This document shows positions 28,544 through 42,752 of a stretch of 64,000 nucleotides of DNA, one piece after another. The notes under the pieces are model-generated. The model had not been told where the DNA came from. It saw only the letters and a list, made by a program, of their open reading frames with translations, and did not search any database. This DNA is from Clostridia bacterium (GTDB taxonomy: Bacteria > Bacillota > Clostridia > Oscillospirales > CAG-272). The stretch is taken from positions 168,952-232,951 of the forward strand of contig JAFVUF010000012.1 in the NCBI GenBank assembly GCA_017502875.1, written 5' to 3'. Positions within the stretch are counted from its first letter, which is position 1. Each line of letters begins with the position of its first letter. The position numbers and the translations under genes are program-made.

Positions 28544-29131
28544 GTGCCTGTTGGCACAAGCTTTTTGAAAAAAGCTTGACCAAAACTTCTCTTACGGGCT
28601 GCCGCCCAACACTTAACAAACACTTACTCTGTTTAAAATCTTTACAAGGAAGCCGTAGGCTTTAACTTAGCGGCGCTCGAAATGCTCAACGTTCTCAAAA
28701 GTACGCGCCGCCAATTCGCCAACGGGGGCGTCCCCGGTCGCCGCAGGCCGTTGCCTGCCGTCGCCATTTGCCTCCAGGCGCTCGCCTGGCGCAATGACTT
28801 TTTCTTTGGGAAGAAGCAGAGCCCAAAGAAAAAGTAACAAAAAGAAAGGCTCGTTTGGGATATTTCGCTCTCTGCGGAGAGCGACAAGGCTCCGCGCCTT
28901 GACTGCGCCGCCTTTTGAAAAAGGTGGGCGAAAACTTCTAAGCATTGTGAACTTCTGTGCAAACCTTAGTGTAGCGAAGCGAACCTCGACTTAGCGGCGC
29001 TCGAAATGTTCGACGTTCTCAAAACTACACGCCGCCATTTGCCTCCGGGCGCTTGCCTGGCGCCGCCATTTGCCTACAGGCGCTTGCCTGGCGATTGCCA
29101 TTTGCCTACAGGCGCTCGCCTGCCGATTGCC
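28544..29131 (+). repeat. Family-A composite array A6 (at least two elements plus extra CCAGGCG hairpin units)
   Basis: GTGCCTGTTGGCACAAGCTTTTTGAAAAAAGCTTG..; GCAGGCCGTTGCCTGC variant hairpin; second full module series; three tandem GCCATTTGCCT(C/A)C(A/G)GGCGCT(T/C)GCCTGGCG units; overlaps the degV 3' end. Confidence 0.9.
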
Positions 29132-29996
29132 AGAAGAACAGCGCGACTGTTCCGGGACCGGTATGGCTTCCTATGGCAGTGCCGATATTTTTTATCTCGA
29201 CCTTGCCGTCAAGCTTGGGGAAATACTCCTCGATAAGCCGCGCGAGCGCTACGGCGTCCTCCTCACAGGCGGAATGAGAAATATAGCACTTCCCGCTGTA
29301 ATCCTTGCCGTCCATCGCCAGCTCAGCCATTTTACCAAACGCCGCCTTGATAGCGTTCTTTTTGGCGCGGTGCTTTTCCCTAGGAACGAGCTTGCCCTCG
29401 GACGAAACGTGCATAAGAGGGCATATCCTCAGAATAGTTCCGACGAAGCCCGCAACCCTTGAAACGCGTCCGCCCTTGACAAAAAAGGTAAGGTCGCTTG
29501 AAAAGAACCAATGCGCTAGTCTAAGCTTGTTTTCCTCAGCCCAGCTCGCTAGAGACTCAATATCCATTCCCTCGTCTCGCTTATCGGCGAGCGCGTCCAT
29601 AAGCAGACCGTAGCCCGACGCGGCGCAAAGCGAATCGACAATGATAAGCTTCCTTTCGGGGAATTCCTCCATTAATATCTCTCGCGCCTGCACAGCCGAA
29701 TTGTAAACCCCCGAAAGCCCCGACGAAAGCGAGACGTGGATAACGTCCCTTCCCGCCTTCAAAAACGGCGTGAAATACTCAACAAACTCATCAATATTTA
29801 TCTGAGAGGTCTTGGTCTCCGCACCGTTTGCCATCGACTCGTAAAACTTATCTATCGGCATACTCTGTCCGAGGTCGTCCGTGTACTCAACGCCGTCAAG
29901 ATAGTAATGGAAGCAGGCGTAGCTTATATCCCTTTTCTCAAAATGCTCCTTTGTCAAATCCGCCGTCGAACAGCAGCTTAATACGTAATTTGTCAT
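29106..29996 (-). CDS. DegV-family fatty-acid-binding protein
   Basis: Start trimmed to MTNYVLSCCSTADL; DegV-like throughout; last ~7 codons and the TAG stop lie in repeat A6. Confidence 0.8.
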   Translation of the reverse strand: MTNYVLSCCSTADLTKEHFEKRDISYACFHYYLDGVEYTDDLGQSMPIDKFYESMANGAETKTSQINIDEFVEYFTPFLKAGRDVIHVSLSSGLSGVYNSAVQAREILMEEFPERKLIIVDSLCAASGYGLLMDALADKRDEGMDIESLASWAEENKLRLAHWFFSSDLTFFVKGGRVSRVAGFVGTILRICPLMHVSSEGKLVPREKHRAKKNAIKAAFGKMAELAMDGKDYSGKCYISHSACEEDAVALARLIEEYFPKLDGKVEIKNIGTAIGSHTGPGTVALFFWQSAGERL

Positions 29997-30149
29997 GTCT
30001 TTTACATTTCCTTTCGTACCCCGTCTCCGAGGGGGTGATGCTTTACGGTACAATTATACCCACATTTCCCGCCTTATGCAACCTACTGCTCCGTTTTAAT
30101 ACTCTACCTGTAAAAGCCGCCTGTGTAGAGTTGAAAAAATCAACCTCTA

Positions 30150-30192
30150 CGAAAAAGAAAATGCGACTCCACGAATCGTGGAATCGCATTTA
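30150..30192 (-). terminator. Intrinsic terminator of the small N-rich gene
   Basis: On minus strand AATGCGATTCCACGATTCGTGGAGTCGCATT followed by TTCTTTTTC. Confidence 0.65.
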
Positions 30193-30212
30193 AGGGTTAA
30201 ATAAAACGGCGC

Positions 30213-30437
30213 TTATCTGTCCTGCTCGAAGCCTACGCCCATACCGCTTTGGTAACGGTTATCCTGCATAGCCGCCTTAGTCTTGTTCTGAGAAGCGGCG
30301 CCGTTATTTGTGCCGGAGCCTTGCTTTTTGCCGCTTGCCTTGTTATTCTGAGCCTTGCCGTTATTGCTATTTACAACCTTAACGTTATTTAAGGCGTTTT
30401 TGCCATTTTTGTTTTCACAGTTCTTTTCGTTATTCAT
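30213..30437 (-). CDS. Hypothetical small Asn/Gly/Lys-rich protein (74 aa)
   Basis: Low-complexity ORF with own terminator; RBS GGAGAG upstream; composition reminiscent of small spore proteins but no family recognised. Confidence 0.45.
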   Translation of the reverse strand: MNNEKNCENKNGKNALNNVKVVNSNNGKAQNNKASGKKQGSGTNNGAASQNKTKAAMQDNRYQSGMGVGFEQDR

Positions 30438-30552
30438 TTTCGCACTCTCCTTTCCGATTTTAGTATGTCATATCAAACGAAAATTATACTTTGCCGCCGA
30501 TAGCTGATTTTTGTTCAACAGTAAATTTTTTTTAAACTTCGACATAATAGTA

Positions 30553-30581
30553 TTGAAAACCTCTTTTAAAAGAGGTATAAT
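30553..30581 (+). promoter_or_regulatory. Sigma-A-type promoter
   Basis: TTGAAA, 17-nt spacer, TATAAT. Confidence 0.6.
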
Positions 30582-30659
30582 ATGGTTATGAAAAGCCCGT
30601 TTTCAGCGTTTTCGGCGGTTGCGGGCGCGATGAAAACTAAGGAAAGGAAGCCGTAAGCC

Positions 30660-31298
30660 GTGAAGGAGCTAAAGGAAATAACCGCAAAAAACATAACCGA
30701 GCTGCGCCTTCGCGCTAAAATGACTCAGCTTGAGCTCGGCAACGCCATCAGCTACTCCGACAAAGCAGTATCAAAGTGGGAGCGAGGCGAGGCGATTCCG
30801 GACGCGTACGTGCTTCTTCAGCTTTCGGAGATTTTCGGGGTAAGCGTTGACTATCTCCTCAAAGACCACGAGGGAGAGCCTATACCGAGGGCGCGCAGAA
30901 GCCGAGCAAATCACGCAAGCATAACGGCTCTGGCGATAATTGCCGTATGGACGGTCTTCGCCGTGGCGTACATTGCGGTTAATCTGGCGACGAAGGGCTA
31001 CTCTTATTGGCTGTTTTTTGTATACGCAACCGTCGTTTCGCTTATAATACTGACGGTATTCAATACCATCTGGGGTAAAAAGTCGCTCAACATACTGATA
31101 GTGGGAGCGCTGGTCGCCTCGCTTATCGCCACGGTATACCTTATCCTGCTTTCAGTCGGTAATTTCTGGCAGATACTGCTGCTCATCATACCCGCCGAGC
31201 TTATCGTGATATGCTGCTTCAAGCTGAAAATAAAAAAGGTAACGGACATTTTCAAGCCTAAAAATACCGCGGAAAAGCACGCGCAGGAAAACGAATAA
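30660..31298 (+). CDS. XRE-family HTH protein with four C-terminal TM helices
   Basis: GTG start after RBS AAGGAAAGGAAG; HTH MTQLELGNAISYSDKAVSKWERGEAIPD; hydrophobic C-terminal half. Confidence 0.7.
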   Translation: MKELKEITAKNITELRLRAKMTQLELGNAISYSDKAVSKWERGEAIPDAYVLLQLSEIFGVSVDYLLKDHEGEPIPRARRSRANHASITALAIIAVWTVFAVAYIAVNLATKGYSYWLFFVYATVVSLIILTVFNTIWGKKSLNILIVGALVASLIATVYLILLSVGNFWQILLLIIPAELIVICCFKLKIKKVTDIFKPKNTAEKHAQENE

Positions 31299-31311
31299 AA
31301 CCGGTTCTACC

Positions 31312-31341
31312 AAGGTCGCCGCGCACGGCGGCCTTTTTTGT
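31312..31341 (+). terminator. Intrinsic terminator
   Basis: AAGGTCGCCG CGCA CGGCGGCCTT followed by TTTTGT. Confidence 0.8.
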
Positions 31342-31399
31342 CGCCGATTTACTCTCACAAAAGCCTTAGTAATTTTTATGCCAAAGTTGAAAAACCCCC

Positions 31400-31428
31400 T
31401 TGAATTTTTTTAATACTGATGTTATAAT
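31400..31428 (+). promoter_or_regulatory. Sigma-A-type promoter of ftsK
   Basis: TTGAAT, 17-nt spacer, TATAAT. Confidence 0.55.
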
Positions 31429-31502
31429 ATAATCTGTATAATTATTTTTATTTAGAGTAATAATATCTTTTGTGTTAGATCTAAGCGGAAAGGACGTACA
31501 GA

Positions 31503-34500
31503 ATGAAGAGCAAAAAAAGTGTCAAAAAACCAAATGGCGCGCGAGCTTCCTCCAAATCGGGAGCGAAAAGACGCGTTGCCTTGAATAAAAGCGGCAGAAC
31601 CTCGATACCGAAACAAAAGCTCTCTGACAAGCGCAAGAAATCAATATTCTCCGCTATAACGCCCTTTATTCTGTTTGCGGTGTCGCTTCTGCTTGAAACC
31701 TGCTTTCTGCTGCCGGAGAAGTCAGGCGGCGCGGGAATACTTGTCCACGACCTTTTCTTCGGGCTTTTCGGCTCGGTTTCGCACGTGATAGCGATAGGCT
31801 TACTGCTTATCTCATTCTTCTACAAGGATTTGAGCGAGCGCGGAGCTTTGCGCTATAAGCTCGTGCTTTTTGCCGTTCTCGCAGCCGTACTCACCTCCGC
31901 TAACACCTTGGCGGCGCAGAACGGCCTAAAAGACGCCGCGTTCTCTTTAAATACATTTTGGCAGACGGGAACGCTCGCTGAAAGCGGCGGAGTTTTCGGG
32001 GGAGTACTTGGCTTCCTGTTCTCAAAATTATTCGGCGGCATAGCCGCCACCGTGATAACCGTTATCGTCTCAGTAGCGCTGGCAAGCCTTTGCTTTGGAA
32101 AGACCAGGCTCGGCGTTTGGCAAGTATTCGTCAGGGATAAAAACGGCGAAAGCGCTATGCGCCCGCAGCAGCATACCGCGCCCGCAATGCCCGAAAGTGC
32201 CCCCGTCGTAGCAAACGCCGGCGCCCCTCAGATAACGGAGATAACCGTTCCGAGAAGAATAGACACCCTTCTTTCTAATGATATCACAGAAAGCGAGCCG
32301 TCCGCGCCGCAGCTTTCCGAGCCTGAGCAGCTTATCCCAGAGCTTGTCGGCGGAGAGGCGGAAAACGCGCCCGAATATGCCGACGGCGTGCAGTCGGACG
32401 GTCAACTTACCGACCTTGACGATTTCGACGACAGCCTCGGCGAGGGAGACGGACTTCGTTCAAGCTATCGCCCCGCGGACTTAATGGAGGATTTCGGCTT
32501 CCGAGCCGAGCAGACGAAAAAAACGGAAAAGCAGGATATTTACAGCGAGGAGCCGAAGCCTGCGCCCGCAAGGCCTATTGAAGTGCCGAGAACAGCGCCC
32601 GCAGCGCCCAAAAAGCAGGAAAGCCCCGAAGCTCCAAGAGGATATTCACCGTTTGCGACCATTATGTCCAAGGAGGAGTTTTTTGGCGAAAGAGACGCCA
32701 AAAAAACCTACGATACCCCTGAAAATACAGCCGCCCCGTCCGTTAAGACAGTGGCTTATTCCCCGTTTTCCGACCCGATTGCAAGTATGAACGCGCCTAA
32801 GCGCGATGTAACCGACCTTCCTCCCCAGAGCTATATAGCCGCGGGTCAGGAAAAAATATGGGAGGATATGCGCGAGCAGGCTCGGATTATCGAAAATGAG
32901 CATAATGCCGCCGCAAAGGCAGCCGAGGAGACGGAAAACGAGCCTGTTTTCTCAAAAGCCGCACTGTCGTTCAACGAATTCAGTCATAACGACGGCACCG
33001 GTCGTAGCGACGACACCGCTTATGAGCCACATTTCTGTGCAAAAAATGATGTTTCAAGCGTATCCGGTCGTAGCGACGGCACCGATAATTACGGTATTTC
33101 CGCTAAGTTTTCAGCTATTGAGGATAACCAAAATAGCTTTTCACCCGTACCCACCAAGGACGAGCTTTATTCAAGTGATCCGATGGCAGACTTCGCCCCC
33201 GCCCAAAACGAAAAGCCGAGCTTTTCCTCGGCGTTCCCCGAAAGACACGAGCCTGTTCAGTCAGCGCCCGTATTCACTAATGAGCCTAAGCCGACGCCCA
33301 CTTATACTGAGTCGGCGCCCGCCCAGCCTAAAAATCCAATAATTCCACCTGCCCAACCGAAAATTTCCGTTACGAGCGCACCCGTAACACCCGAAAGGGC
33401 CGTTCCCGTAATGCCTGCGGAAAACACCCATTCCGCGTTTGACGACGATATAACGGCACCCGAGCAGGAGGACGAAATCGCCCGTCCCGTAGCCGAGCAA
33501 GAGCCGGAGCGCGACCCAAGAGTTATAAATCCGTTCAGCCGATACACCAAGCTCCGCTATCCGAAATACGTAAAGCCGCCGACGTCCCTTCTCGACGAGG
33601 CGGATAACACAAAAAAGATATCCGAGGAAGAAATCCACGCGGTAATGCGGAAGATACTCGACAAATTCGAATCCTTCCACGTTGACGTGTCGATTACCGG
33701 TTACAGCGCCGGCCCGTCAATTACTCGCTATGAGGTTACCCCCGGACCGGGCGTAAAATACAAGCAGGTAACGGGACTTGCCGAGGATATAGGACTTGCC
33801 CTGCAATCCGACACTATAAAGGGCGAGGTGCGTATAGTTACGGTTCCGGGTAAGCCCGTAATCGGTATCGAGGTGCCAAACAGCGTGGTCTCCAAGGTAT
33901 CGCTGCGTAGCCTTGTCGAAAATCCCGACTTTCAGAAGGCTAAGAGCAAGATAACCGTATGCGTAGGCCTTACGGTTTCGGGTAAGCCTGTCTATATGAA
34001 TATAGACGATATGCCCCACGTTCTCGTCGCGGGTCAGACAAAGTCGGGTAAATCTGTCGCTATCAACGCTATGATTATGAGTATAATCTACCGCGCCTCT
34101 CCCGACGAGGTTCAGTTCATTCTCGTTGACCCAAAGCAAGTAGAGCTGAGCATATACAACGATATTCCGCATATGGTAATGCCCGTTATAGACGACCCAA
34201 AGCGCGCGGCGGGAGCGCTGCAATGGGCAGTCGCGGAGATGGAGCGCCGTTATACCCTCATCAAAAACGCGCGTGTGCGCGACCGTGAGGAGTATTACAG
34301 AATGAAGGACCAGAACCCCGACTTTGAGTATATGCCTCAGATAATAATTATTATCGACGAGCTTGCCGACCTTATGCTTCAAGTGCGTGAGCACGTTGAG
34401 GAGCCTATCAACCGACTTGCCGCTAAGGCAAGAGCCTGCGGAATCAACCTCGTTATCGGTACGCAAAGACCGTCAACGGATATCGTTACAGGTCTGATTA

Positions 34501-35060
34501 AGGCTAATATTCCGTCGAAAATAGCGTTCCGAGTCGCCTCAAACGTTGACTCGCGAGTCATTCTCGGTAACGTAGGCGCCGAAAAGCTGCTTGGCCGTGG
34601 CGATATGCTCTATCACCCCACGGGCGGCAACCAGATAAGAGCGCAAGGCGCTTTCGTCGATACGCCTGAGATAAAGCGCGTGCTTGACTTCATTATCGAA
34701 AACAACGGCGCGGTTGAATACGACCCCGAAATTCTTTACAGACTCCAAAGCGAGACGGATAAGCTGAATAAGACGGATAAGAAATCCGCCATAGGAGGCG
34801 ACGACGACTTTGCCGTTGATACCGCCGATATAGATTTTGACTATCTCTGCCAAGCTGTTGAGCTTGTCATTAATCTCGGAAAGGCGACCACAAACGTTAT
34901 CCAGAGACACTTGAAAATCGGCTTCAACCGAGCGTCAAATATAGTTGATAAGCTTGAGGACCTCGGCTTTATCTCCAAGAGCAACGGAAGCAGTAAGCCA
35001 AGAGACGTAACCGTTACTATGGCTGAATACCTCGAATGGAAAAACTCACACCAGAAGTAA
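31503..35060 (+). CDS. ftsK: DNA translocase FtsK/SpoIIIE
   Basis: 1185 aa; N-terminal TM helices, ~480-aa Pro/Ala/Glu-rich linker, motor domain with Walker A GQTKSGKSV and IIIIDELADLM, C-terminal gamma winged helix. Confidence 0.93.
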   Translation: MKSKKSVKKPNGARASSKSGAKRRVALNKSGRTSIPKQKLSDKRKKSIFSAITPFILFAVSLLLETCFLLPEKSGGAGILVHDLFFGLFGSVSHVIAIGLLLISFFYKDLSERGALRYKLVLFAVLAAVLTSANTLAAQNGLKDAAFSLNTFWQTGTLAESGGVFGGVLGFLFSKLFGGIAATVITVIVSVALASLCFGKTRLGVWQVFVRDKNGESAMRPQQHTAPAMPESAPVVANAGAPQITEITVPRRIDTLLSNDITESEPSAPQLSEPEQLIPELVGGEAENAPEYADGVQSDGQLTDLDDFDDSLGEGDGLRSSYRPADLMEDFGFRAEQTKKTEKQDIYSEEPKPAPARPIEVPRTAPAAPKKQESPEAPRGYSPFATIMSKEEFFGERDAKKTYDTPENTAAPSVKTVAYSPFSDPIASMNAPKRDVTDLPPQSYIAAGQEKIWEDMREQARIIENEHNAAAKAAEETENEPVFSKAALSFNEFSHNDGTGRSDDTAYEPHFCAKNDVSSVSGRSDGTDNYGISAKFSAIEDNQNSFSPVPTKDELYSSDPMADFAPAQNEKPSFSSAFPERHEPVQSAPVFTNEPKPTPTYTESAPAQPKNPIIPPAQPKISVTSAPVTPERAVPVMPAENTHSAFDDDITAPEQEDEIARPVAEQEPERDPRVINPFSRYTKLRYPKYVKPPTSLLDEADNTKKISEEEIHAVMRKILDKFESFHVDVSITGYSAGPSITRYEVTPGPGVKYKQVTGLAEDIGLALQSDTIKGEVRIVTVPGKPVIGIEVPNSVVSKVSLRSLVENPDFQKAKSKITVCVGLTVSGKPVYMNIDDMPHVLVAGQTKSGKSVAINAMIMSIIYRASPDEVQFILVDPKQVELSIYNDIPHMVMPVIDDPKRAAGALQWAVAEMERRYTLIKNARVRDREEYYRMKDQNPDFEYMPQIIIIIDELADLMLQVREHVEEPINRLAAKARACGINLVIGTQRPSTDIVTGLIKANIPSKIAFRVASNVDSRVILGNVGAEKLLGRGDMLYHPTGGNQIRAQGAFVDTPEIKRVLDFIIENNGAVEYDPEILYRLQSETDKLNKTDKKSAIGGDDDFAVDTADIDFDYLCQAVELVINLGKATTNVIQRHLKIGFNRASNIVDKLEDLGFISKSNGSSKPRDVTVTMAEYLEWKNSHQK
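33000..33152 (+). repeat. Family-C intragenic element, two tandem in-frame copies (66 nt + 87 nt) inside the ftsK linker
   Basis: Both start GGTCGTAGCGACG(A/G)CACCG; the 87-nt copy (33066-33152) matches the mnmG copy at about 72/87 ungapped positions (hand count). Confidence 0.85.
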
Positions 35061-35076
35061 CCGTTTGTTGAAACGT

Positions 35077-35164
35077 TTTTCCGGCTTTCTTGAAAGAAAG
35101 CCTCGGCAAAGAACTCTGTACACCGCCAGCCCCCAATTTTATAGGAAACTGTCGGTGTATATAA
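35077..35164 (+). repeat. Family-B-like repeat B13 (variant head), head-first; ~17 nt after the ftsK stop
   Basis: TTTTCCGGCTTTCTTGAAAGAAAGCCTCGGCAAAGAACTCTGTACACCGCCAGC..CTGTCGGTGTATATAAT. Confidence 0.8.
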
Positions 35165-35342
35165 TTTTCACGAGGTTTGCTCAAAAAAGGGAAAACCCTC
35201 CGTTCCAATGGGCTTGTACACCGCATCAGGTTAGGATTTGAGTTATATAGTCTACGTTTATACATTCAGATTATGTGCTTTTTAATCCAAGCCTTTTCGT
35301 CGAAGTAGATACACTGTTTTATTTGAAGCTTTGTAAAAAAGA

Positions 35343-35471
35343 CTATATAATCAATGCTTCGTATATATGCGAGGCATTGATTATACAAAAGCTTTTGCGC
35401 CGACGTTTGCAAAGCAAACTCGTAAGGAAACTTTAGTTTCTAAAGCTTCTTCTCGAAAAGCGCGTATCTCC
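35343..35471 (-). repeat. Family-B repeat B14 (extended variant), tail-first; head ~30 nt before the DJ-1 start
   Basis: TATATAATCAATGCTTCGTATATATGCGAGGCATTGATTATACAAAAGCTTTTGCGCCGACGTTTGCAAAGCAAACTCGTAAGGAAACTTTAGTTTCTAAAGCTTCTTCTCGAAAAGCGCGTATCTCC. Confidence 0.9.
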
Positions 35472-35500
35472 TTCTACCAAAACGTTGAAAGGAAAATCAT

Positions 35501-36046
35501 ATGATATATATTTATTTAGCGCAGGGCTTTGAGGAAACGGAGATGATATTTCCTCTCGACCTTATGCGTCGCGCGGGACTTGACGTAAAAACCGTATCGG
35601 TTACGGGCGAGCTTAACGTAACCGGCTCACACGGCATAACCGTAAAGGCGGACATGCTGGTAAGCGACCCAAGCTACGACCTGTCAGACGTCCAGCTCGT
35701 TATGCTTCCGGGCGGAATGCCGGGCACGATAAATCTCGAAAAAAGCGCAGAGGTGCAAAAGGCGATACGCTACGCCTACGACAGCGGCAGATACATTGCC
35801 GCTATATGCGCCGCCCCCCTCGTTCTCGGAAACGCTGGACTGCTTAAAGGAAAAAAGGCGGTGTGCTACCCGGGCTTTGAAAAGTACCTTGCGGGCGCCG
35901 AAAACCCCGCCAACAGATGCGTAACGGACGGAAAAATAATCACGGCAGTCGGCTGCGGCGCGGCGGCGGAGCTTGGCTTTGCTATAATAACCGAGCTTTG
36001 CGGCGCGCAGACAGCGGAGAGTATAAAAAATGGAATTCTCGCATAA
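35501..36046 (+). CDS. DJ-1/PfpI-family protein
   Basis: 181 aa; nucleophile elbow AAICAAP; DJ-1/ThiJ-like throughout. Confidence 0.85.
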   Translation: MIYIYLAQGFEETEMIFPLDLMRRAGLDVKTVSVTGELNVTGSHGITVKADMLVSDPSYDLSDVQLVMLPGGMPGTINLEKSAEVQKAIRYAYDSGRYIAAICAAPLVLGNAGLLKGKKAVCYPGFEKYLAGAENPANRCVTDGKIITAVGCGAAAELGFAIITELCGAQTAESIKNGILA

Positions 36047-36659
36047 GAGCTTCGGGGACAGAGCCCCGCGTGTTAACCTGAGAGAGCTTAAAAACGAGCT
36101 TAGAAAAACCTACCGAGCCAAGCGCGCGGCGCTTGATGCGGACGAAAAGGCGGAAATGGACGCCGCTATATGCGCAAGACTAACTTCGCTTGTCAGCGTT
36201 CGCTACGCGGACGAAATTTTAAGCTTTTCGCCACTTGCGGGTGAAATCGACGTAACGGCTTTTAACCTCTACGCCCTCAAAAACGGCAAGGAGCTATACC
36301 TTCCGAGGTGCGTTAAGGGGACGCCGGAGATGAATTTCCACCTTGTTGACAGCCTTGACTGTCTTGAAGCAGGCTCGTTTTCGATAAGCGAGCCAAGCCC
36401 TGACGCGCCAATCTGGAAAAACGAGCAGGGAAAGCGCGCGGTCTGCATTATACCCGCAATGTCGTACGACCGAAACGGATACCGCCTCGGCTACGGAAAG
36501 GGCTACTACGACCGCCATCTTTCAAGCAAAAGCGCGCTGAAAATCGGCGTCTGCTATACCGATTTTCTTTCCGACTCGATACCCAGAGGCAGATATGACC
36601 TCGCGGTTGACGTCATAGTTACCGAAAAGGGCATTATTACCGTAGGAAAAAAGGGTTAA
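36030..36659 (+). CDS. 5-formyltetrahydrofolate cyclo-ligase
   Basis: 209 aa; GYRLGYGKGYYDR motif; overlaps the previous gene by 17 nt. Confidence 0.8.
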   Translation: MEFSHKSFGDRAPRVNLRELKNELRKTYRAKRAALDADEKAEMDAAICARLTSLVSVRYADEILSFSPLAGEIDVTAFNLYALKNGKELYLPRCVKGTPEMNFHLVDSLDCLEAGSFSISEPSPDAPIWKNEQGKRAVCIIPAMSYDRNGYRLGYGKGYYDRHLSSKSALKIGVCYTDFLSDSIPRGRYDLAVDVIVTEKGIITVGKKG

Positions 36660-36729
36660 AAGAACGTCTATAAAGGAAAACTAAGTTTATAACAGTTCAT
36701 TTTTCGGGTATTCAAGCACTATCGCGCAA

Positions 36730-37767
36730 ATGAAAAAATTCTTTACCCTGAAATACTTTACTTTGGTTCTTGTCGCCTCGCTTGGCTTGACGGCGCTTGC
36801 CGTTTTTCTGGCAAACGACGCCTTTGCGCTCACCGCCCCCGACGGAGAGGCGGAGATTATCATACCGCCCGATTGCTCTAAATCCGAGCTTGCGGACACG
36901 TTAAAGGAAAACGGGCTTATAAAAAGTAAGCTTTGGTTTAATACCTACCTCGCGCTCCGTGGCAAAAGCCTGAATGTCGAGGCGGACACCTACTTGGTTC
37001 CCTACGGAAGCGGCTTTGACGGCATAGTCCGTATTCTGACCTACGGAAGCCCCGACTCGCACGTGCAGGTGCGCGTGGTTATCCCCGAGGGCAGCAGTAT
37101 CGAGAATGTTATGGAGATAATCTGCGATAAGTACGGTATCTGCGAAAGAGCCGAATTTACCGACGCGGTACAAAACGGCGATTTCTCAAAATATAGCTTT
37201 GTTTCCGCACCTTCATCTAACCCGCAGGGCAGAAAATACCGACTTGAAGGCTATCTCTACCCCGACACCTATTGCTTTTACTCGGACAGCTCGGCGTATA
37301 CGGTAATTGATAAAATGCTGTCCAATTTTAACTCTAAATTCGATAAAAAATATCTTGCCGCGTGCGAAAAACAGGGTATGACCGTAAATGAGGCGGTTAC
37401 GCTCGCCTCGATAATTATCCGCGAGGGAAAATACGTCTCGGATTACGGCAAAATCTCGTCCGTTTTCCATAACAGACTGAAAAGCCCGTCCTTTTCGGGC
37501 AGACTTCAAAGCGACGCCACCCTCGTCTATGCGCTCGGCAGAGAAATGCAGCCCGAGGATAAGGAGCTTGACTGCCCCTATAACACCTACAAATACGGCG
37601 GTCTGCCGCCCTCTCCCATCTGCTCCCCCGACCTCAACGCCATTTCCTACGCAATCTACCCCGATAGCACCCGATATTACTATTTCGTTACTAAAAAGGA
37701 CGGCTCCGTCCTTTACGCCCATGATTATTACACCCATCAGCAAAATATAAGAAAAGCAACCGCGTGA
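36730..37767 (+). CDS. mltG: Endolytic murein transglycosylase MltG (YceG-like)
   Basis: N-terminal TM, YceG-like motifs (EGYLYPDTY, ASIIIREG, NTYKYGGLPPSPI). Confidence 0.88.
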   Translation: MKKFFTLKYFTLVLVASLGLTALAVFLANDAFALTAPDGEAEIIIPPDCSKSELADTLKENGLIKSKLWFNTYLALRGKSLNVEADTYLVPYGSGFDGIVRILTYGSPDSHVQVRVVIPEGSSIENVMEIICDKYGICERAEFTDAVQNGDFSKYSFVSAPSSNPQGRKYRLEGYLYPDTYCFYSDSSAYTVIDKMLSNFNSKFDKKYLAACEKQGMTVNEAVTLASIIIREGKYVSDYGKISSVFHNRLKSPSFSGRLQSDATLVYALGREMQPEDKELDCPYNTYKYGGLPPSPICSPDLNAISYAIYPDSTRYYYFVTKKDGSVLYAHDYYTHQQNIRKATA

Positions 37768-37772
37768 GTAAA

Positions 37773-37981
37773 GGGGATACGCGCTTTATGGTGGCGCATA
37801 GCGTTAATGCGCGCCTTAAATTCAATTGCGCCACCATCGAATATTTTTCTTGGTCGGAGCGACCAAGCTTTTGCGCTAAACGGCAAAAGACAAAATATTC
37901 CCATAATCTGTGTAGCCTCCGCTGCGCAAAAGCTTCTGTATACTCGGTCTCCCGCACACGTACGGGACTCCGAGTATATAG
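37773..37981 (+). repeat. Family-B repeat B15 with nested insertions, head-first; 6 nt after the mltG stop
   Basis: GGGGATACGCGCTTT interrupted by a 60-nt palindromic unit (ATGGTGGCGC..GCGCCACCAT, 37788-37847); resumes ..GCTGCGCAAAAGCTTCTGTATA plus hairpin CTCGGTCTCCCG../..CGGGACTCCGAG plus TATATAG. Confidence 0.8.
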
Positions 37982-38110
37982 CTCTGCGAATTTCACTTGA
38001 ATAGTGTACTCCCTTAATCACAAGAAGCTTTGTTCTATAATAACTCACATTATATTTTGAAATTAATACAGATTGATATGCAATATGCCGTTTTTGAACA
38101 ACCCCCAGAA

Positions 38111-38194
38111 TTATATAATCGGCGTTCCGTGCTTGTACGGTGCGGCGATTATACAGAAGTTTTGCGGAGCTTTTTCAAAAGCGACCGTATCCCC
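38111..38194 (-). repeat. Family-B repeat B16, tail-first; head ~36 nt before the U32 start
   Basis: TTATATAATCGGCGTTCCGT..ACGGTGCGGCGATTATACAGAAGTTTTGCGGAGCTTTTTCAAAAGCGACCGTATCCCC. Confidence 0.85.
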
Positions 38195-38238
38195 TATCAA
38201 AACGTTATTAATCCTCAAAATACATAAGGATGATTACT

Positions 38239-39480
38239 ATGACAAAACCTGAAATTTTAGCGCCTGCGGGCAATTTTGAGAAATTAAAGAGCGCCGTAGC
38301 GTTTGGCGCGGACGCGGTATACCTTGCGGGCATAAGCTTCGGAATGAGAAGCGCCGCGGGAAACTTTACCGCCGAGGAGCTGCCCCTTGCGGCAAAATAC
38401 TGCCACGAGCGAGGCGTAAAGCTTTACGTTACAGTCAACACCATGCCCAGAACAAACGAATACGAAAGACTTGAAGCGCACCTGAAAACGCTTGAAGCGG
38501 CAGGCGTTGACGCCCTTATCATCTCCGACCTTGGCGTATTTATGACGGCAAAGGAGGTCGTGCCGAATATGACTCTGCACGTCTCCACACAAGCAAGCGT
38601 GGTCAGCGCCCGAACCTGCGCCGAATGGTACAAGCTCGGCGCAAAAAGAATAATTCTGGCAAGGGAGCTTTCTCTTGACGAGATAAAGGAGATACGGGCG
38701 AAGATACCGAAGGAGCTTGAGCTTGAAGCATTCGTCCACGGCTCGATGTGCGTGGCGTACAGCGGACGGTGTCTGCTCTCTAACTACCTCACGGGCAGGG
38801 ACGCCAACCGAGGCGCGTGCGCTCAGCCGTGCCGTTGGGAATACAAGATGTATACGGCAGAAATCGAGGAGGTCAAGCGAAAGGACGAGCGACTTGTCAT
38901 GATTGAGGAGGGCGGCGAAACGTTCACGTTCAGCTCGCGCGACCTGTGTATGATAGAGCATATCCCGGAGCTTGCGGAAAGCGGACTTTCCTGCCTTAAA
39001 ATCGAGGGCAGAATGAAGAGCGCCTGCTACGTCGGCGCGGTAACAAACGCCTACCGAATGGCGCTGGACAGTTACTTTTCCGACCCCGCGGGTTACGTCT
39101 ACGACGAAAAATGGCTTGACGAGCTTGAAAGCGTATGCCACCGTCAGTACTGTACAGGCTTCTTCTTTGGCGAGACAGTCGATACGGCAAAGGTCTGCGC
39201 CCAGCCCGGCTACATAAAGGAGCAGGCGGCGCTCGGCGTATGCGTTGGCTACGACAGCGAAAGGCAGCTCGCCCACTTCACCCAGAAGAACAAATTTTCG
39301 GCAGGCGAAGCCGTGGAGCTGCTCGTTCCCGGCAAGACCGCAGTGTCCTTCAAGGCTGACAAAATCTACGGCGAAAAGGGCGAGGAAATCGAAAGCACTC
39401 CCCACCCGATGATGAAATTCTCAATCCACGTACCCTTCCCCGTACCCGAGCAGTCGATTCTAAGGTACGCAAAATCTTAA
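38239..39480 (+). CDS. Peptidase U32 family protein
   Basis: PEILAPAGNFEKLKSAVAFGADAVYLAG and U32 core; start at second ATG (RBS AAGGA); ATG 38230 is possible. Confidence 0.85.
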   Translation: MTKPEILAPAGNFEKLKSAVAFGADAVYLAGISFGMRSAAGNFTAEELPLAAKYCHERGVKLYVTVNTMPRTNEYERLEAHLKTLEAAGVDALIISDLGVFMTAKEVVPNMTLHVSTQASVVSARTCAEWYKLGAKRIILARELSLDEIKEIRAKIPKELELEAFVHGSMCVAYSGRCLLSNYLTGRDANRGACAQPCRWEYKMYTAEIEEVKRKDERLVMIEEGGETFTFSSRDLCMIEHIPELAESGLSCLKIEGRMKSACYVGAVTNAYRMALDSYFSDPAGYVYDEKWLDELESVCHRQYCTGFFFGETVDTAKVCAQPGYIKEQAALGVCVGYDSERQLAHFTQKNKFSAGEAVELLVPGKTAVSFKADKIYGEKGEEIESTPHPMMKFSIHVPFPVPEQSILRYAKS

Positions 39481-39528
39481 AGCTAAGCTAAAAAGCTTTC
39501 AAACAACATATAAAAGGAAACTACGCTT

Positions 39529-40866
39529 ATGCAAAACATTACCGAATACGTAAACGGACTCTGCGCCGAGGTCAAAACGGCGCAAAAGGCTCTTGCGCTC
39601 GCAAAAGCAAGCGAAAAAAACGGCGCGCTCCTGAAAATCGCCGAGGCGCTCAGAGAAAGCAAAGCCGAGATACTTAAAGCAAATGAGCAGGACATATCCT
39701 CAGCCTCGGAAAACGGCGTTCCGAAAACAATGATTGACCGACTGACCTTAACCGAGGCGAGAATTGACGCCATTGCTGACTCGCTTCTTGACGTGGCGGC
39801 TCTGCCCGACCCTTGCGGAAACGGCTCTGTTTCAGTCCGTCCAAACGGACTGAAAATAACAAAAACGAGTGTTCCGCTAGGCGTTATCGGTATCATTTAC
39901 GAGGCTCGCCCCAACGTTACGGTTGACGCCGCGGCGCTCTGCCTCAAAAGCGGAAACGGCGCCGTTTTGAAGGGCGGCAAGGAGGCGCTTAACACCAACC
40001 GCGCGCTTATGAGCGTTATGAAAAGGGCGCTTAATCGCACCCGTATTCCGCCAAACGCCATTTCTCTCATCGACAGCGCTGAACGCACGGCAACCGCGGC
40101 GCTTATGAACGCCAGAGGTTTGATTGACGTGCTTATCCCCAGAGGCGGCAAGGGTCTTATCAAGGCGGTAGTGGAAAACGCCGCCGTTCCGGTCATTGAG
40201 ACGGGAGCCGGCAACTGCCATATCTATATCGACGAAAGCGCCGATCTAAAAAAAGCGCTCGCTGTCGCGGTAAACGCAAAAATGTCTCGTCCCTCGGTCT
40301 GCAACGCCGTTGAGACTATGCTCGTTCACGAAGCCGTAGCGGAGAAATTTTTGCCTATGTTCGCAAGGGAAACCGAGGGCAAGCTTGAAATTCGCGGCTG
40401 CAAAAAGACCGTTTCAATTATTAGAGGTTCGATGGAAGTATCGTACAGGGCACCCACATTAGCTGAAAATTCACTACAAACGCCGTCTGTAGCGGTGTCG
40501 CCGTTGCGACAGGGTGCGATAGAAGCCACCGAGCAGGACTACGACACCGAGTTTAACGACTACGTTTTGGCGGTCAGGGTTGTTTGCTCGCTTGACGAGG
40601 CTATCGAGCATATCAGACGCTATTCAACGGGACACAGCGAGGCAATAATTACCGAAAATATTGCTTGTGCGCGTAAGTTCACCGAAAGCATAGACTGCGC
40701 GGCGGTCTACGTCAACGCCTCCACCCGCTTTACCGACGGAGGTGAATTCGGCTTTGGCGCCGAGATAGGCATTTCCACCCAGAAGCTTCACGCCCGCGGA
40801 CCTATGGGTCTAAGCGAGCTTACCACCGTCAAATATATCGTCGAGGGCGACGGTCAAATACGGTGA
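39529..40866 (+). CDS. proA: Glutamate-5-semialdehyde dehydrogenase (gamma-glutamyl phosphate reductase)
   Basis: 445 aa; ProA-like throughout (catalytic region SRPSVCNAVETMLVH); carries a ~29-aa extra segment between ..EIRGC.. and ATEQDYDTEF. Confidence 0.92.
   Translation: MQNITEYVNGLCAEVKTAQKALALAKASEKNGALLKIAEALRESKAEILKANEQDISSASENGVPKTMIDRLTLTEARIDAIADSLLDVAALPDPCGNGSVSVRPNGLKITKTSVPLGVIGIIYEARPNVTVDAAALCLKSGNGAVLKGGKEALNTNRALMSVMKRALNRTRIPPNAISLIDSAERTATAALMNARGLIDVLIPRGGKGLIKAVVENAAVPVIETGAGNCHIYIDESADLKKALAVAVNAKMSRPSVCNAVETMLVHEAVAEKFLPMFARETEGKLEIRGCKKTVSIIRGSMEVSYRAPTLAENSLQTPSVAVSPLRQGAIEATEQDYDTEFNDYVLAVRVVCSLDEAIEHIRRYSTGHSEAIITENIACARKFTESIDCAAVYVNASTRFTDGGEFGFGAEIGISTQKLHARGPMGLSELTTVKYIVEGDGQIR
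40426..40519 (-). repeat. Family-C intragenic element, reverse orientation, in-frame inside proA
   Basis: Reverse complement reads TCGCACCC TGTCGCAACGGCGACACCGCTACAGACGGCGTTTGTAGTGAATTTTCAGCTAATG..CCATCGAACC, colinear with the mnmG/ftsK copies over the first ~65 nt. Confidence 0.75.
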
Positions 40867-40883
40867 ATTAACAGTTCCTGAAT

Positions 40884-41000
40884 GGAGATACGCGCTTTCT
40901 TGCAAGAAAGCTGCGCAAAGAACTCTTTTACACCGACAGTCTCATAATTTTGTGAAATTTTTTCGCTCAGCTATGTGAGACTGTCAGTGTAAAAGATAAC
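40884..41000 (+). repeat. Family-B repeat B17, head-first; ~18 nt after the proA stop
   Basis: GGAGATACGCGCTTTCTTGCAAGAAAGCTGCGCAAAGAACTCTTTTACACCGACAGTCTCA..TGAGACTGTCAGTGTAAAAGATAAC. Confidence 0.9.
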
Positions 41001-41070
41001 TTTGTAAAGTATCTTTTAAAAAATAAGTATTCCACTCAGGAATTATTACTACACGAGAAATTTGAGAAGT

Positions 41071-41724
41071 ATGTCAAAAATTAAAATCATCTACAAAAGC
41101 AGCGACATAGCCGTCGTTGAAAAGCCCTACGGAACGCTTTCTCAGCGCGACGCCAAGGGCGAGGACGGGCTTGTCGAGATGCTTTCAAGGCAATTAAATA
41201 CCGCGGTCTACCCCGTTCACCGTCTTGACCGCAACGTCGGCGGAGTTATGGTGTTCGCTCTTACAAAAAGGGCGGCGGCTCAGCTTTCCGTCGAGAACGC
41301 CTTTGAAAAAAACTATCTTGCCGTAGCTACGGGCGTTTCTGACGGATTTGCCGATACGGGTGAGATGACCGACTATCTCTTTAAGGACGGCGCCAAGGGT
41401 AAAAGCTTCGTCGTAAAGGGTGAACGCAAGGGCGCAAAGCTCGCCCGTCTTGCCTATGAGATACTTTCCACCGTCGAAACAGAGCAGGGCAGACTGACGC
41501 TTTTCAAAATACGGCTCTTTACGGGCAGAACTCACCAGATAAGAGTACAACTCGCTTCAAGAGGTATGCCGCTTGTCGGAGACGGAAAATACGGCAGCAG
41601 GATAAAGAGCGAAAGCATTGCGCTTTGGTCTAATAAAATCAAGTTGAACGCACCCGTAAACGCCGAAAAATCGGTTTTTGAAGCTCTGCCGAGCGAAAAC
41701 GAGTGGTTTAAGCTATTTATTTGA
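41071..41724 (+). CDS. RluA-family pseudouridine synthase
   Basis: HRLDRNVGGVMVFA catalytic motif, GRTHQIRVQLA; start at ATG 41071 (MSKIKI). Confidence 0.85.
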   Translation: MSKIKIIYKSSDIAVVEKPYGTLSQRDAKGEDGLVEMLSRQLNTAVYPVHRLDRNVGGVMVFALTKRAAAQLSVENAFEKNYLAVATGVSDGFADTGEMTDYLFKDGAKGKSFVVKGERKGAKLARLAYEILSTVETEQGRLTLFKIRLFTGRTHQIRVQLASRGMPLVGDGKYGSRIKSESIALWSNKIKLNAPVNAEKSVFEALPSENEWFKLFI

Positions 41725-41762
41725 AAATAATAAAATACATATAAAAAAGGAAGAAAACCGTT

Positions 41763-42752
41763 ATGAACCTGAAAGGAAGAAGCTTTTTAAAGCTTATCGA
41801 CTACACCCCTGAGGAGATTGAATACTTAATCGACCTCGCCGCAGACCTCAAAGCAAAGAAAAAGTCGGGAATTCCCGTTTTTGATATGCACAGAGGCAAG
41901 AACATCGTTCTCATTTTCGAGAAAACCAGCACCCGTACCCGCTGCTCCTTTGAGGTAGCGGCGCACGACCTCGGCATTACTACCACCTATCTTGACCCCG
42001 CAGGCTCGCAGGTTGGCAAAAAGGAGAGCATTGCGGACACCGCGAGAGTTCTGGGCAGAATGTACGACGGAATTGAGTACAGGGGCTTCGGTCAGGAATT
42101 GGTCGAGGAGCTTGCTAAACATGCGGGCGTTCCCGTTTGGAACGGTCTGACAAACGAATTCCACCCCACTCAGATACTTGCCGATTTCTTAACGATTCGC
42201 GAGCGCTTCGGTAAACTTAAAGGCATAAATTTTGTTTATATGGGCGACGCCCGTTACAATATGGGTAACTCCCTTATGGTCGGCTGCGCCAAGATGGGAC
42301 TGAACTTCACCGCCTGCGCCCCGAAGAAATACTTCCCCGACCCCGCCCTTATCAAGCTCTGCGAGGGCTACGCCAAGGAAAGCGGCGCGACTCTGCGCTT
42401 CATCGAGGAGCCAACCGAGGCAGTAAAGGGCGCAGACGTCATCTACACGGACGTCTGGGTGTCGATGGGAGAGCCTATCGAGGTCTGGGAGCAACGTATT
42501 AACGACCTCGGCGCGTACCAGGTCAACCGCGCGCTTATGGACGCTACATCTAACCCGCAATGCGTATTTATGCACTGTCTGCCCGCATTCCACGACTTAA
42601 AAACCAAGGTCGGCGCGGAGATGTGCGCCAAGTTCGGCAGAACCGAAATGGAGGTTACCGACGAGGTATTCGAAAGCCCGGCGTCCATTGTTTTCGACGA
42701 GGCTGAAAACCGTATGCACACGATAAAGGCGGTTATCGCCGCTACATTATAG
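41763..42752 (+). CDS. argF: Ornithine carbamoyltransferase
   Basis: [24 protein letters not shown] motifs. Confidence 0.93.

Follow-up and report, generated by a model that had tools for sequence, protein, structure and literature searches.

A dispersed, in-frame and very probably RPE-like repeat in housekeeping genes of uncultured Clostridia

The ftsK locus and its two repeat units

The window (i.e., the whole 64,000-nucleotide stretch of DNA that was analysed) contains an ftsK gene whose 1185-aa product is found in identical form on eight independent contigs, from different samples, assemblies, and assemblers, and is annotated there with FtsK_alpha, FtsK_SpoIIIE, and FtsK_gamma domains. 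Two units of a repeat that we call family C sit in the Pro/Ala/Glu/Ser-rich linker of this protein (12% Pro and 11% Ala), directly preceded by a partial head:

31503 to 35060, forward strand: ftsK, the host gene of units U1 and U2 (ORF of 1185 aa)
32982 to 32999, forward strand: partial head only, AGTCATAACGACGGCACC, read as SHNDGT (matches the head pattern with three mismatches)
33000 to 33065, forward strand: U1, a 66-nt unit, GRSDDTAYEPHFCAKNDVSSVS, with its best match in the window in the gyrA copy
33066 to 33152, forward strand: U2, the resident 87-nt unit, GRSDGTDNYGISAKFSAIEDNQNSFSPVP, with 72 of 87 positions identical to the mnmG unit

U1 (FtsK residues 500–521) and U2 (residues 522–550) lie head-to-tail, and both are read in the ftsK frame. 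The initial annotation had described two tandem in-frame units of these lengths at this position, read in the same element frame as a copy in mnmG, and the translations (GRSDDT.. / GRSDGT..) bear out both points. Exact matches to GGTCGTAGCGACG(A/G)CACCG occur at positions 33000, 33066, and 49499, compared to a chance expectation of 0.05 matches, and a copy of this pattern with three mismatches overlaps at 32982; the 3′ end of the partial head (CGGCACC) is similar to the unit tail and abuts U1.

U1 and U2 have the head and part of the tail in common, but their bodies are unrelated (the U1 body being CTTATGAGCCACATTTCTGTGC), which rules out U1 as a recent duplicate of U2. The end of U1, CAAAAAATGATGTTTCAAGCGTATCC, is unique in the window and gives a right-anchored alignment of 17/26 to the mnmG tail (p = 5e-5), and when the units are aligned together, U1 shows a 21-nt gap against the 87-nt units. 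Thus, of the earlier description of U1 as an internally deleted full unit, the length of 66 nt and the tail-like end stand, but U1 is not a shortened U2, since its body is unrelated and the gyrA copy is closest to it. Likewise, of the proposal that the unit can duplicate or insert next to itself, insertion fits better than duplication because U1 is too different to be a recent local duplicate.

Copies in other genes of the window

Further copies lie in three other genes, with a fourth gene as a candidate:

49499 to 49585, forward strand: 87-nt unit that codes for part of an MnmG surface loop (gapless match to U2)
49486 to 49498, forward strand: tail-like 13-mer TTCCGTCGCACCC, which is native to mnmG and borders the unit on its 5′ side (11 of 13 positions as in the unit tail)
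40425 to 40511, reverse strand: 87-nt unit in proA, in reverse orientation, where ProA reads (G)SMEVSYRAPTLAENSLQTPSVAVSPLR
40512 to 40524, reverse strand: tail-like 13-mer TTCTATCGCACCC, which borders the proA unit on its 5′ side as the unit itself reads (12 of 13 positions as in the tail)
21366 to 21431, reverse strand: 66-nt unit in the GyrA C-terminal tail, coding for 22 residues (nhmmer E = 2.4e-7)
18739 to 18789, forward strand: candidate short unit of 51 nt that lies antisense in the part of recX coding for its N-terminal extension (GGTCG start and exact 13-nt tail)

Units in unrelated genes are 63–83% identical, of the same lengths, and found in both orientations; the four loci are set against a complex pattern of gene orientation and GC skew. 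The match between U2 and the mnmG unit is ungapped (blastn 53/59, E = 4.5e-15 within the window) and extends past the head (positions 20–87, permutation p < 5e-5). The proA copy agrees with the mnmG unit at 55/87 positions on the opposite strand, and no other segment of the window reaches 45/87. The closest relative of U1 in the window is the gyrA copy, with 44/66 identities overall and 29/47 past the head (p < 5e-5). For the 51-nt recX segment, recX uses the reverse frame that proA uses for its copy; the segment was not picked up by the nhmmer unit profile, and judging by its two ends we assign it to the family only tentatively. The initial annotation had linked the ftsK units to mnmG and proA while allowing that the likeness might be confined to linker composition. 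This membership holds, with the proA copy reversed and the gyrA and possible recX copies added, and composition does not account for it: at the nucleotide level, the match with the segments in mnmG and proA is significant.

The inserts (66, 87, 87, 66, and possibly 51 nt) are all multiples of three without stop codons, and every host ORF is open. Alignments place them at permissive sites: the FtsK linker, the MnmG surface loop, the GyrA C-terminal tail, and a variable loop of ProA. Disorder is predicted for the insert in MnmG (loop pLDDT of about 24, against a model mean of 71.6). So far, intergenic copies have not been seen in the sequence that served for comparison, all of it from metagenome assemblies and amounting to about 80 kb for the source genome and about 245 kb for the clade. 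No similarity beyond 10–13-mers links family C to the abundant intergenic repeat families of the window, and no Rfam 15 family matches any unit at its gathering score. The sole match of the Rfam 15 scan of the window is an L10 leader at 9144–9322.

Anatomy of the unit

Each family C unit consists of an 18–19-nt head, a variable body, and a 13-nt tail, TTCAATCGCACCC, which is present in exact form in the gyrA copy. The head holds a 5-bp hairpin, GTCG[T/C]-NNCG-[A/G]CGAC, that spans 14 nt and starts 1 nt from the left junction. Across 15 distinct heads, 97% of cells are paired, and one pair alternates between T-A and C-G; this covariation concerns one base pair and probably one or two events, and quasi-palindrome correction could yield it without any function. 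RNA or DNA folding of whole units is no better than that of shuffled sequence (z-scores of −0.35 to −1.37), and no long palindrome was found. A search for terminal inverted repeats was also negative, as GG..G is all that the 5′ end, GGTCGTAGCGACG, has in common with GGGTGCGATTGAA, the 3′ end in reverse complement. The right end carries no hairpin unless another unit follows. The tetranucleotide GTAG occurs only inside head variant A, never as a terminal tag, and variant B does not have it.

The left flanks resemble the unit's own tail. Identity to the tail reaches 11/13 in mnmG and 12/13 in proA, for which the chance at a fixed position is estimated at about 1e-5; a clear tail-like left flank was looked for at the gyrA copy and not found. 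In most copies, the left flank and the right end both read ..CACC(C). Direct repeats of 12–13 nt flank the mnmG and proA inserts, with one consensus at both loci that equals the tail of the gyrA copy. Aligned to the empty site of a relative (L056), proA shows a 12-nt direct repeat on either side of its 87-nt insert, one of them being the 13-mer TTCTATCGCACCC. The similarity between target and tail spans 12–13 nt, and the repeats surround a core of 74–75 nt. The junction between the ftsK units had been likened to the mnmG junction, and this analogy can be sharpened: the CGCACCC to the left of the mnmG unit is native sequence, kept in insert-free orthologues, and equals the unit's own tail. As a separate observation, a tail-like 19-mer stands alone in a mazF gene of relative L024, which the best explanation given below leaves unaccounted for.

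Gain, loss, and rearrangement in relatives

MnmG orthologues with 80–86% identity carry zero, one, or at least two units at the same loop. Without an insert, the site is CGTTCAATCGCACCC in L024, where 12 of 12 positions agree with the tail, and CGTTCAAACGCACCC in L023. ProA of L056 is 29 aa shorter, with an empty site from which exactly 87 nt are missing, and the site in L055 is filled. Comparison of FtsK linkers among related genomes, as proposed in the initial annotation, shows that copy number varies at this locus too. The ftsK gene of L020 (98.4% identical overall and 98.2–98.6% beside the indel) is without exactly the 66 nt of U1, and the array of L055 (FtsK 85% identical) is rearranged, with a U2-type unit, internal 42-nt duplications, and no U1. 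Both relatives have units orthologous to U2 and keep the upstream partial head as a partial head; U1 is specific to the strain of the window, which belongs to a source contig of about 238 kb. Sister strains are present in ENA ERZ28654312, ENA ERZ28018977, and JGI 3300029305, and samples that carry the species include SRR12529312, SRR12529306, SRR31077510, and the XIEF21 samples. Homology of U1 to the first L055 unit was considered and rejected, as that unit aligns to U2 with a score of 74 and to U1 with a score of 43. The direction of the U1 indel is uncertain: a deletion between two 19-nt heads would also fit, because the single head of L020 is of the U1 type.

The window MnmG and the MnmG proteins of L053 and L054 are 99% identical, and the 4 nt by which their units differ all fall in head positions 1–11. 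These four differences give the mnmG head of the window 19/19 identity to the ftsK head, while the outgroup L021 keeps the other of the two head types. By the position of the changes, this difference between strains resembles a conversion patch that does not reach beyond the head. L021 also has tandem partial heads of 12 and 18 nt, which, together with the 42-nt repeats of L055, read as signatures of slippage.

Searches beyond the clade and for machinery

Searches of public contig and protein collections found no copies of family C outside this narrow clade. Among public genome contigs other than the source genome, the exact head 19-mer gave 19 single matches in unrelated records (Actinomycetota, Proteobacteria, and others), which we take as chance. 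In metagenome contigs, a strict pattern that fits every known 87-nt unit gave zero matches, and a head-gap-tail pattern gave 81 that were head-only by construction, with a best nhmmer E of 0.007 and a median GC content of 65%. A degenerate head gave 28 chance matches in viral contigs, mostly GC-rich phage contigs. At the protein level, a word-indexed search with alignment of doubled unit peptides returned none at E ≤ 10, and a profile search of 1.84 billion representative proteins had the FtsK of a sister strain as its sole match; because that search gave this protein alone, the unit peptide is not a conserved domain. Finally, no transposase, recombinase, TnpA, or RAYT was found among the 30 scanned ORFs of the window or in the gene tables of two flank extensions. 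The machinery scan consisted of these 30 ORFs; the identification of ftsK, mnmG, proA, gyrA, and some further genes came from other evidence.

Proposed origin and alternative explanations

In our assessment, family C is very likely a dispersed, in-frame, RPE-like repeat. It is non-autonomous, has length classes of 87 and 66 nt with shorter derivatives, and is hosted by one narrow lineage of uncultured, Spo0A-positive Clostridia, in linkers, surface loops, and termini of housekeeping proteins. The whole package, in which such a repeat inserts at tail-like sequence by the mechanism outlined here, we hold to be probable with a good deal less assurance. Under this proposal, new units would be copied in directly 3′ of a tail-like sequence, which may be native to the gene or may end another head or unit, with an expected left flank of TTCNATCGCACC. 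The only insertions to survive would be those that are stop-free and keep the reading frame by a length divisible by three, and the host protein would thereby gain a polar, disordered filler peptide. At ftsK, U2 and its partial head would be old and common to relatives, and U1 would be an extra 66-nt unit of another subfamily, placed head-to-tail before U2. The most likely route would be homology-guided copy-paste, through replication template switching or ectopic gene conversion, for which the tail and the head hairpin would serve as microhomology, and arrays could then grow, shrink, and rearrange via slippage or unequal recombination between heads. Which enzymes act, and in which direction U1 changed, are inferred points, and that template switching or conversion specifically is the engine seems plausible, with a chance somewhat short of even. 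A transposase with a 12–13-nt target preference and target-site duplication would leave equal traces around the 74–75-nt core, as would a site-specific recombinase acting on a core site.

Mobilisation of the same element in trans, by an HUH/Y1 transposase of the IS200/IS605 or RAYT type (the leading candidate) or by a site-specific recombinase, is possible, if rather unlikely. A transposase of this kind would find the unit by its head hairpin and cleave behind CACC(C) at either end, the unit then landing 3′ of a CACCC-type target, while a recombinase would cross over within the 13-nt core. The conserved 5-bp hairpin 1 nt from the left junction is consistent with such an enzyme, as are the ..CACC(C) common to the left flank and right end of most copies and the apparently orientation-specific insertion beside a defined sequence by an element with no terminal inverted repeats. 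The targets of IS200/IS605 elements are 4–5 nt long, however, and are exceeded by the 12–13-nt similarity between target and tail; furthermore, the hairpin is missing at the right end unless the next unit follows, the head-only patch and the arrays of partial units resemble recombination or slippage rather than cut-and-paste, and the scanned ORFs and flanking gene tables supply no candidate enzyme. REP-like hairpin repeats are nonetheless abundant in the genome, and the literature records both intragenic REPs in replication and repair genes and the cleavage by RAYT of REP DNA in single-stranded form (PMC3733652).

That the 22–29-residue peptide is a selected module (e.g., a linear motif) recruited into several proteins is very unlikely. 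The forward copies all share frame F1, although F2 is likewise stop-free, and the motifs GR[SN][DG]DT and SIAP recur among the units. Yet proA, and possibly recX, read the opposite strand and therefore an unrelated peptide; the identity between unit peptides is 31–62%, with most nucleotide differences non-synonymous; close relatives function without the insert, which is predicted to be disordered; and nothing similar beyond the sister strain was found in the 1.84 billion representative proteins.

An ordinary local tandem repeat, generated by slippage in a low-complexity linker with a merely compositional likeness across genes, is more improbable still. FtsK linkers are highly variable and repeat-prone, and relatives do show partial heads and internal duplications, but the cross-gene nucleotide alignments refute this reading: U2 is 83% identical over 87 nt to the mnmG segment and related to the reverse-strand proA segment, the best match of U1 lies in gyrA, and the bodies of U1 and U2 are unrelated though the strains differ by about 1.5%. 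A VNTR would consist of near-identical local copies with none elsewhere, and here related copies occur in three other genes. An assembly or scaffolding artefact behind the tandem arrangement or the 66-nt difference is barely conceivable, for while every sequence is a metagenome assembly and the synteny of the window with a 99.99%-identical contig ends exactly inside a repeat cluster at 28779, the ftsK ORF is intact, the same FtsK allele with U1 and U2 recurs on the eight contigs, and U1 and U2 have no more than 19 nt in common, which is much shorter than the k-mers that assemblers use. An intein or intron was rejected, as the units do not come near the length of either.

A bolder version of the preferred reading holds that family C is a currently active, coding-adapted mobile module that homes to its own 12–13-nt tail by a hairpin-dependent mechanism undescribed for any repeat family (enzyme-free template switching or a dedicated trans-acting nuclease), altering essential proteins between strains less than 2% apart. 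We consider this unlikely; if true, it would be the first RPE-type system with insertion events that can be caught and a mechanism that can be dissected. For annotators, family C is in any case a source of insertions and deletions in marker genes, and it shows how the essential proteins FtsK, GyrA, MnmG, and ProA gain lineage-specific disordered inserts.

Comparison with known systems

Elements of the IS200/IS605 group have no terminal inverted repeats, carry hairpins near their ends, and insert in one orientation 3′ of a short specific sequence. Family C resembles them in being without terminal inverted repeats, in its hairpin near one end, and in its oriented position 3′ of a specific sequence, but it has the hairpin at one end only, its target-like sequence is 12–13 rather than 4–5 nt, and a TnpA/RAYT gene was not found in the sequence searched; family C is at most a possible member of this group. 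Single-strand transposition of this type, including its REP/RAYT derivatives, has been described (PMC6006769; PMC5581495).

An element counts as a MITE by its terminal inverted repeats and the short target-site duplications beside it (PMC10969869; PMC2229807). Like intragenic members of this group (ERIC, BOX, etc.), family C is small and non-autonomous and forms in-frame fusions with host ORFs, but the terminal inverted repeats that define the class are absent from it. PARCEL is outlined as a palindromic, amphipathic coding repeat in repeat proteins with surface phenotypes, spread horizontally among diverse microbes (PMC2996958). To judge from that outline, family C is similar in coding for a peptide, forming intragenic tandem arrays, and having a distribution that suggests gene-to-gene spread, but differs in being non-palindromic, in residing in cytoplasmic housekeeping enzymes, and in being limited to one clade.

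REPs are 20–40-bp palindromes with a GTAG or CGTC tag at one end (Di Nocera et al., 2013; PMC3733652). Many intragenic REPs lie in replication and repair genes, often as dimers or groups that encode 20–30 residues (PMC3733652), and CGTC-type REPs are said to have no dedicated transposase (PMC10969869; PMC3733652). Family C shares with them a small hairpin repeat inside coding regions and a REP-rich host genome; in contrast, its hairpin takes up just the opening 15 nt, and the unit as a whole is longer, is not a palindrome, and has a defined tail, such that family C is neither a 20–40-bp palindrome nor terminally tagged.

The closest resemblance in behaviour is to the "selfish DNA inside genes" of Rickettsia, because family C is present, absent, or multiplied in close relatives. 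As summarised in two reviews, RPEs are palindromic elements of about 100–150 bp (Ogata et al., 2000, via PMC10969869 and PMC3733652), found as in-frame, stop-free, translated inserts in unrelated housekeeping genes, with a presence that varies between related genomes (PMC10969869; PMC3733652); these reviews give no transposase or insertion mechanism. Family C is likewise short and dispersed, in frame and stop-free, in several unrelated housekeeping genes, translated as an extra peptide at permissive surface sites compatible with protein fold and function, and present or absent between relatives (orthologues without an insert exist for MnmG, ProA, and FtsK), with no known transposase. It differs in its length of 51–87 nt and its head hairpin of just 5 bp, in place of a palindromic unit with a long hairpin, and its fold energy is no better than that of shuffled sequence; it makes head-to-tail arrays, adjoins the 3′ side of a 13-mer like its own tail, and has shown no intergenic copies so far in the sequence compared. 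Its host is a free-living, gut-type member of the Clostridia, whereas that of the RPEs is an alphaproteobacterium with an obligate intracellular life. Selfish DNA set in frame within genes has classically been a Rickettsia curiosity, and a comparable element is now seen in free-living gut-type Clostridia. To this picture, family C adds a short non-palindromic unit, empty and filled sites, a consistent tail-like target, and strain-level differences, with which its mechanism becomes testable.

Tandem units in the FtsK linker

The FtsK protein of the window (ORF 31503-35060, 1185 aa) has a linker, residues about 210-690, composed of 12% Pro, 11% Ala, 10% Glu and 9% Ser; FtsK_alpha, FtsK_SpoIIIE and FtsK_gamma domains are annotated for the identical protein on other contigs. 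The head 19-mer of family C, GGTCGTAGCGACG(A/G)CACCG, matches at 33000, 33066 and 49499 in the window (0.05 matches expected by chance), and an overlapping copy with three mismatches lies at 32982. The two tandem in-frame units that the initial annotation described in this linker were confirmed in their coordinates, their lengths (66 and 87 nt) and the element frame that they share with the copy in mnmG.

Family-C units and candidate in the window
33000-33065, U1, 66 nt, FtsK residues 500-521
33066-33152, U2, 87 nt, FtsK residues 522-550
49499-49585, mnmG unit, 87 nt
40425-40511, reverse orientation, proA unit, 87 nt, within proA (39529-40866), 55/87 identical to the mnmG unit
21366-21431, minus strand, gyrA unit, 66 nt, in the C-terminal tail of GyrA
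18739-18789, plus strand, recX candidate, 51 nt, antisense within the recX ORF (18297-18899, minus strand)

U2 and the mnmG unit align without gaps at 72 of 87 identical positions (53/59 by blastn, E = 4.5e-15), and their similarity extends beyond the head (permutation p < 5e-5); the likeness is therefore genuine at the nucleotide level and not a product of low-complexity linker composition, the explanation against which the initial annotation had asked its reading to be checked. U2 and the proA copy aside, no other window sequence reaches 45/87 against the mnmG unit. U1 itself is matched best, across the whole window, by the gyrA unit (44/66 overall; 29/47 beyond the head, p < 5e-5), and in a multiple alignment both show the same gap of 21 nt against the 87-nt units. 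U1 is therefore a member of a 66-nt length class, and its earlier reading as an internally deleted full unit, in effect a damaged U2, was rejected. With such refinements, the original observation and its interpretation are supported.

The recX candidate starts with GGTCG, ends in the exact 13-nt tail, lies in the ~65-aa N-terminal extension of RecX and is read by recX in the reverse frame that proA uses for its own copy (GAIE.. against GSME..); we tentatively regard it as a family-C derivative. No intergenic copy turned up when about 245 kb of clade sequence was searched with a DNA profile.

Encoded peptides

Most units lack stops in frames F1 and F2, with F2 interrupted by a stop in the gyrA and recX copies, and forward copies use F1 only. 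The encoded peptides are polar and acidic, correspond to no known domain and, among 1.84 billion representative proteins, matched only the FtsK of a sister strain; the MnmG insert has a pLDDT of about 24 in an AlphaFold model averaging 71.6. Just 3' of the mnmG unit, a second variable insert (49586-49633, TNEISNKNQPNLFTRQ) is longer in relatives (L021:4828-4920, ..EKIEVFAEQKQPNLFTLHSSLFTNQ, where CTCTTCACT recurs) and either short or missing (VTEQ / VTENSEQ) in orthologues without a family-C unit; a further small in-frame repeat or slippage may account for it.

Head, tail and flanks

The head consists of a 5-bp hairpin, GTCG[T/C]-NNCG-[A/G]CGAC, followed by ACC, and pairing holds in 97% of cells across 15 distinct heads. 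Pair 6-11 is T-A in six heads, C-G in eight and mismatched in one; this switch probably reflects one or two events only and could stem from quasi-palindrome correction, and we regard it as suggestive. The tail, TTCAATCGCACCC, occurs without change in the mnmG copy, the gyrA copy and the recX candidate, and in degenerate form in U1, U2 and proA. Family-C units have no terminal inverted repeats and match no Rfam family, and none folds as a whole better than shuffled sequence.

The 13 nt immediately left of the mnmG unit, TTCCGTCGCACCC, are native sequence. Since insert-free mnmG orthologues carry tail-like sequence at this site (CGTTCAATCGCACCC in L024, CGTTCAAACGCACCC in L023), the target equals the tail. 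On the plus strand, direct repeats of 12 nt, GGTTCGATGGAA on one side and GGTGCGATAGAA on the other, bracket the 87-nt proA insert, and the empty site has one GGCTTAATGGAA only. In ftsK, CGTTCAACGAATTC lies upstream of the array and U1 directly follows a partial-head end, ..CGGCACC, that mimics the tail; the gyrA copy has no clear tail-like left flank.

Tail-like motifs also occur alone. On L024, whose mnmG is unit-free, the 3' extension of a PemK/MazF toxin gene (1241-1684) contains at ~1596-1621 a 19-nt TCAAACGCACCCGTAACCG (tail-like motif plus GTAACCG) without head or body, which matches the empty mnmG site of L023 at every base; the window's DUF3737 gene carries a similar TTCAATCGCGCCC-GTAACGC in antisense (1864-1876, minus strand). 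Possible readings are solo tails, footprints of excision and a separate target motif.

Gain, loss and apparent recent exchange

MnmG orthologues at 80-86% identity (e.g., P0006-P0013) have a unit-free loop of ordinary length, P0003 and the 99% identical sister-strain protein P0002 have one unit each, and P0004 (L021) has two full 87-nt units. Ahead of the first of these, tandem partial heads (AGTCGCAGCGGC, GGTCGCGACGGCGACACC, GGTCGCAACGGC; L021:4612-4653) show that the head with its hairpin can multiply by itself, in steps of 12 and 18 nt. ProA is filled in L055 (445 aa) and empty in L056 (416 aa), where exactly 87 nt are missing.

Copy number in ftsK likewise varies among strains, as the initial annotation had proposed to check: L020 lacks exactly 66 nt, with 98.2-98.6% nucleotide identity on both sides of the indel. 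When linkers of relatives were compared, L055 FtsK (85% protein identity) proved rearranged, with a partial head and a U2-type unit containing internal 42-nt duplications but no U1, and the more distant L056, L068 and P0126 have GR(S/N)(D/G)DT...IAP-type units elsewhere in the linker. An artefactual U1+U2 allele was rejected, since eight contigs, obtained from different samples with different assemblers, encode the identical protein. With U1 missing from two outgroups, its gain in the window lineage is the more parsimonious reading; L020 could instead have lost 66 nt by a deletion between the two 19-nt heads, because the one head in L020 belongs to the U1 type.

Between the window and the sister strain (L053/L054), the mnmG unit differs by four substitutions (G1A, T6C, G8A, A11G), all within the head; the remaining 76 nt and the compared flanks are identical. 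The window's mnmG head matches that of ftsK U1 at 19/19 positions, and the sister's head type is that of proA and of the outgroup L021. The simplest reading is that the ftsK head overwrote the mnmG head by a short ectopic conversion of 11-20 nt in the U1-carrying lineage. Arrays of relatives contain partial heads of 12 and 18 nt and partial units of 42 nt, a pattern typical of slippage or unequal exchange.

Mechanism of dispersal

Family C has dispersed at the DNA level in both orientations; its presence is lineage-specific and its length changes between strains, with tail-like left flanks and a strain difference confined to a patch in the head. We favour a model in which units would be copied in 3' of tail-like sequence by homology-guided template switching or ectopic conversion and then altered by local slippage, with selection sparing only inserts that stay in frame, lack stops and lie at disordered positions. 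The model draws on the hybrid flanking repeats, the conversion patch and the partial-unit arrays, and on the absence of terminal inverted repeats and of any transposase among the 30 window ORFs scanned and in the gene tables of two flank extensions. The main rival is mobilisation in trans, either by a HUH/Y1 single-strand enzyme of the IS200/IS605 or RAYT type or by a core-site recombinase; its product would have the same structure, and the head hairpin would have a function.

Genomic surroundings

The window's intergenic DNA is crowded with direct and inverted repeats of 35-220 nt that fall into several families (direct repeats, at least 60 families; inverted repeats, at least 124 pairs), at sites including 3343-3650, 8078-8320, 8898-9129, 19071-19466, 28557-29125, 59752-60278 and 63777-64000. 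Many carry REP-like hairpins (e.g., GTCGTCCGTCGCAACGGACGA), and none resembles family C beyond short words. The L064 contig, with identical FtsK, agrees with the window at 99.99% over 28779-45060; left of 28779, a point within the repeat cluster 28557-29125, it has rpsO and pnp, not recF-gyrB-gyrA, and the rpsO arrangement is common to L020, L022 and L068. The break reflects a rearrangement mediated by repeats or, alternatively, a chimeric join made at the repeat during assembly.

The right end of the window (58900-64000) adjoins the replication-origin region: after yidC, jag, mnmE, rnpA and yidD, dnaA and dnaN follow within about 7 kb past it (L057). Genes switch orientation at about 30.5 kb and again at about 59 kb, and GC skew, near 0 between 30 and 58 kb, is about -0.06 to -0.1 on either side, so this 28-kb block may be an old inversion. 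A ClpP-family protein (57633-58832, plus strand, 399 aa against 237-316 aa in relatives; Pfam match at residues 223-384) has a low-complexity, Ser/Asp-rich N-terminal extension of roughly 220 aa. The only window Rfam match at gathering score is a ribosomal protein L10 leader (RF00557, 47 bits; 9144-9322, plus strand) upstream of rplJ/rplL.

Comparison with known systems

The host lineage comprises uncultured, Spo0A-positive Clostridia, and sample names alone suggest the ruminant gut as habitat. Strain-level polymorphism and the availability of empty and filled sites allow tests of how in-frame elements of this kind insert. The nearest analogue of family C is the Rickettsia palindromic element (RPE), which is inserted in frame and translated in unrelated housekeeping genes and is tolerated at positions compatible with fold and function (PMC10969869, PMC3733652), features that family C shares. 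Intragenic GTAG/CGTC REPs, which lie in replication and repair genes and encode 20-30 residues (PMC3733652), are likewise close. The unit is not palindromic as in RPEs, is not bounded by terminal inverted repeats as in MITEs, and lacks the tag plus palindrome that defines REPs; family C is therefore not filed as a member of any of the three. It works like these elements and differs from them in its non-palindromic unit, its head-hairpin-plus-tail architecture, its tail-like target, its head-to-tail arrays and its Clostridia host.
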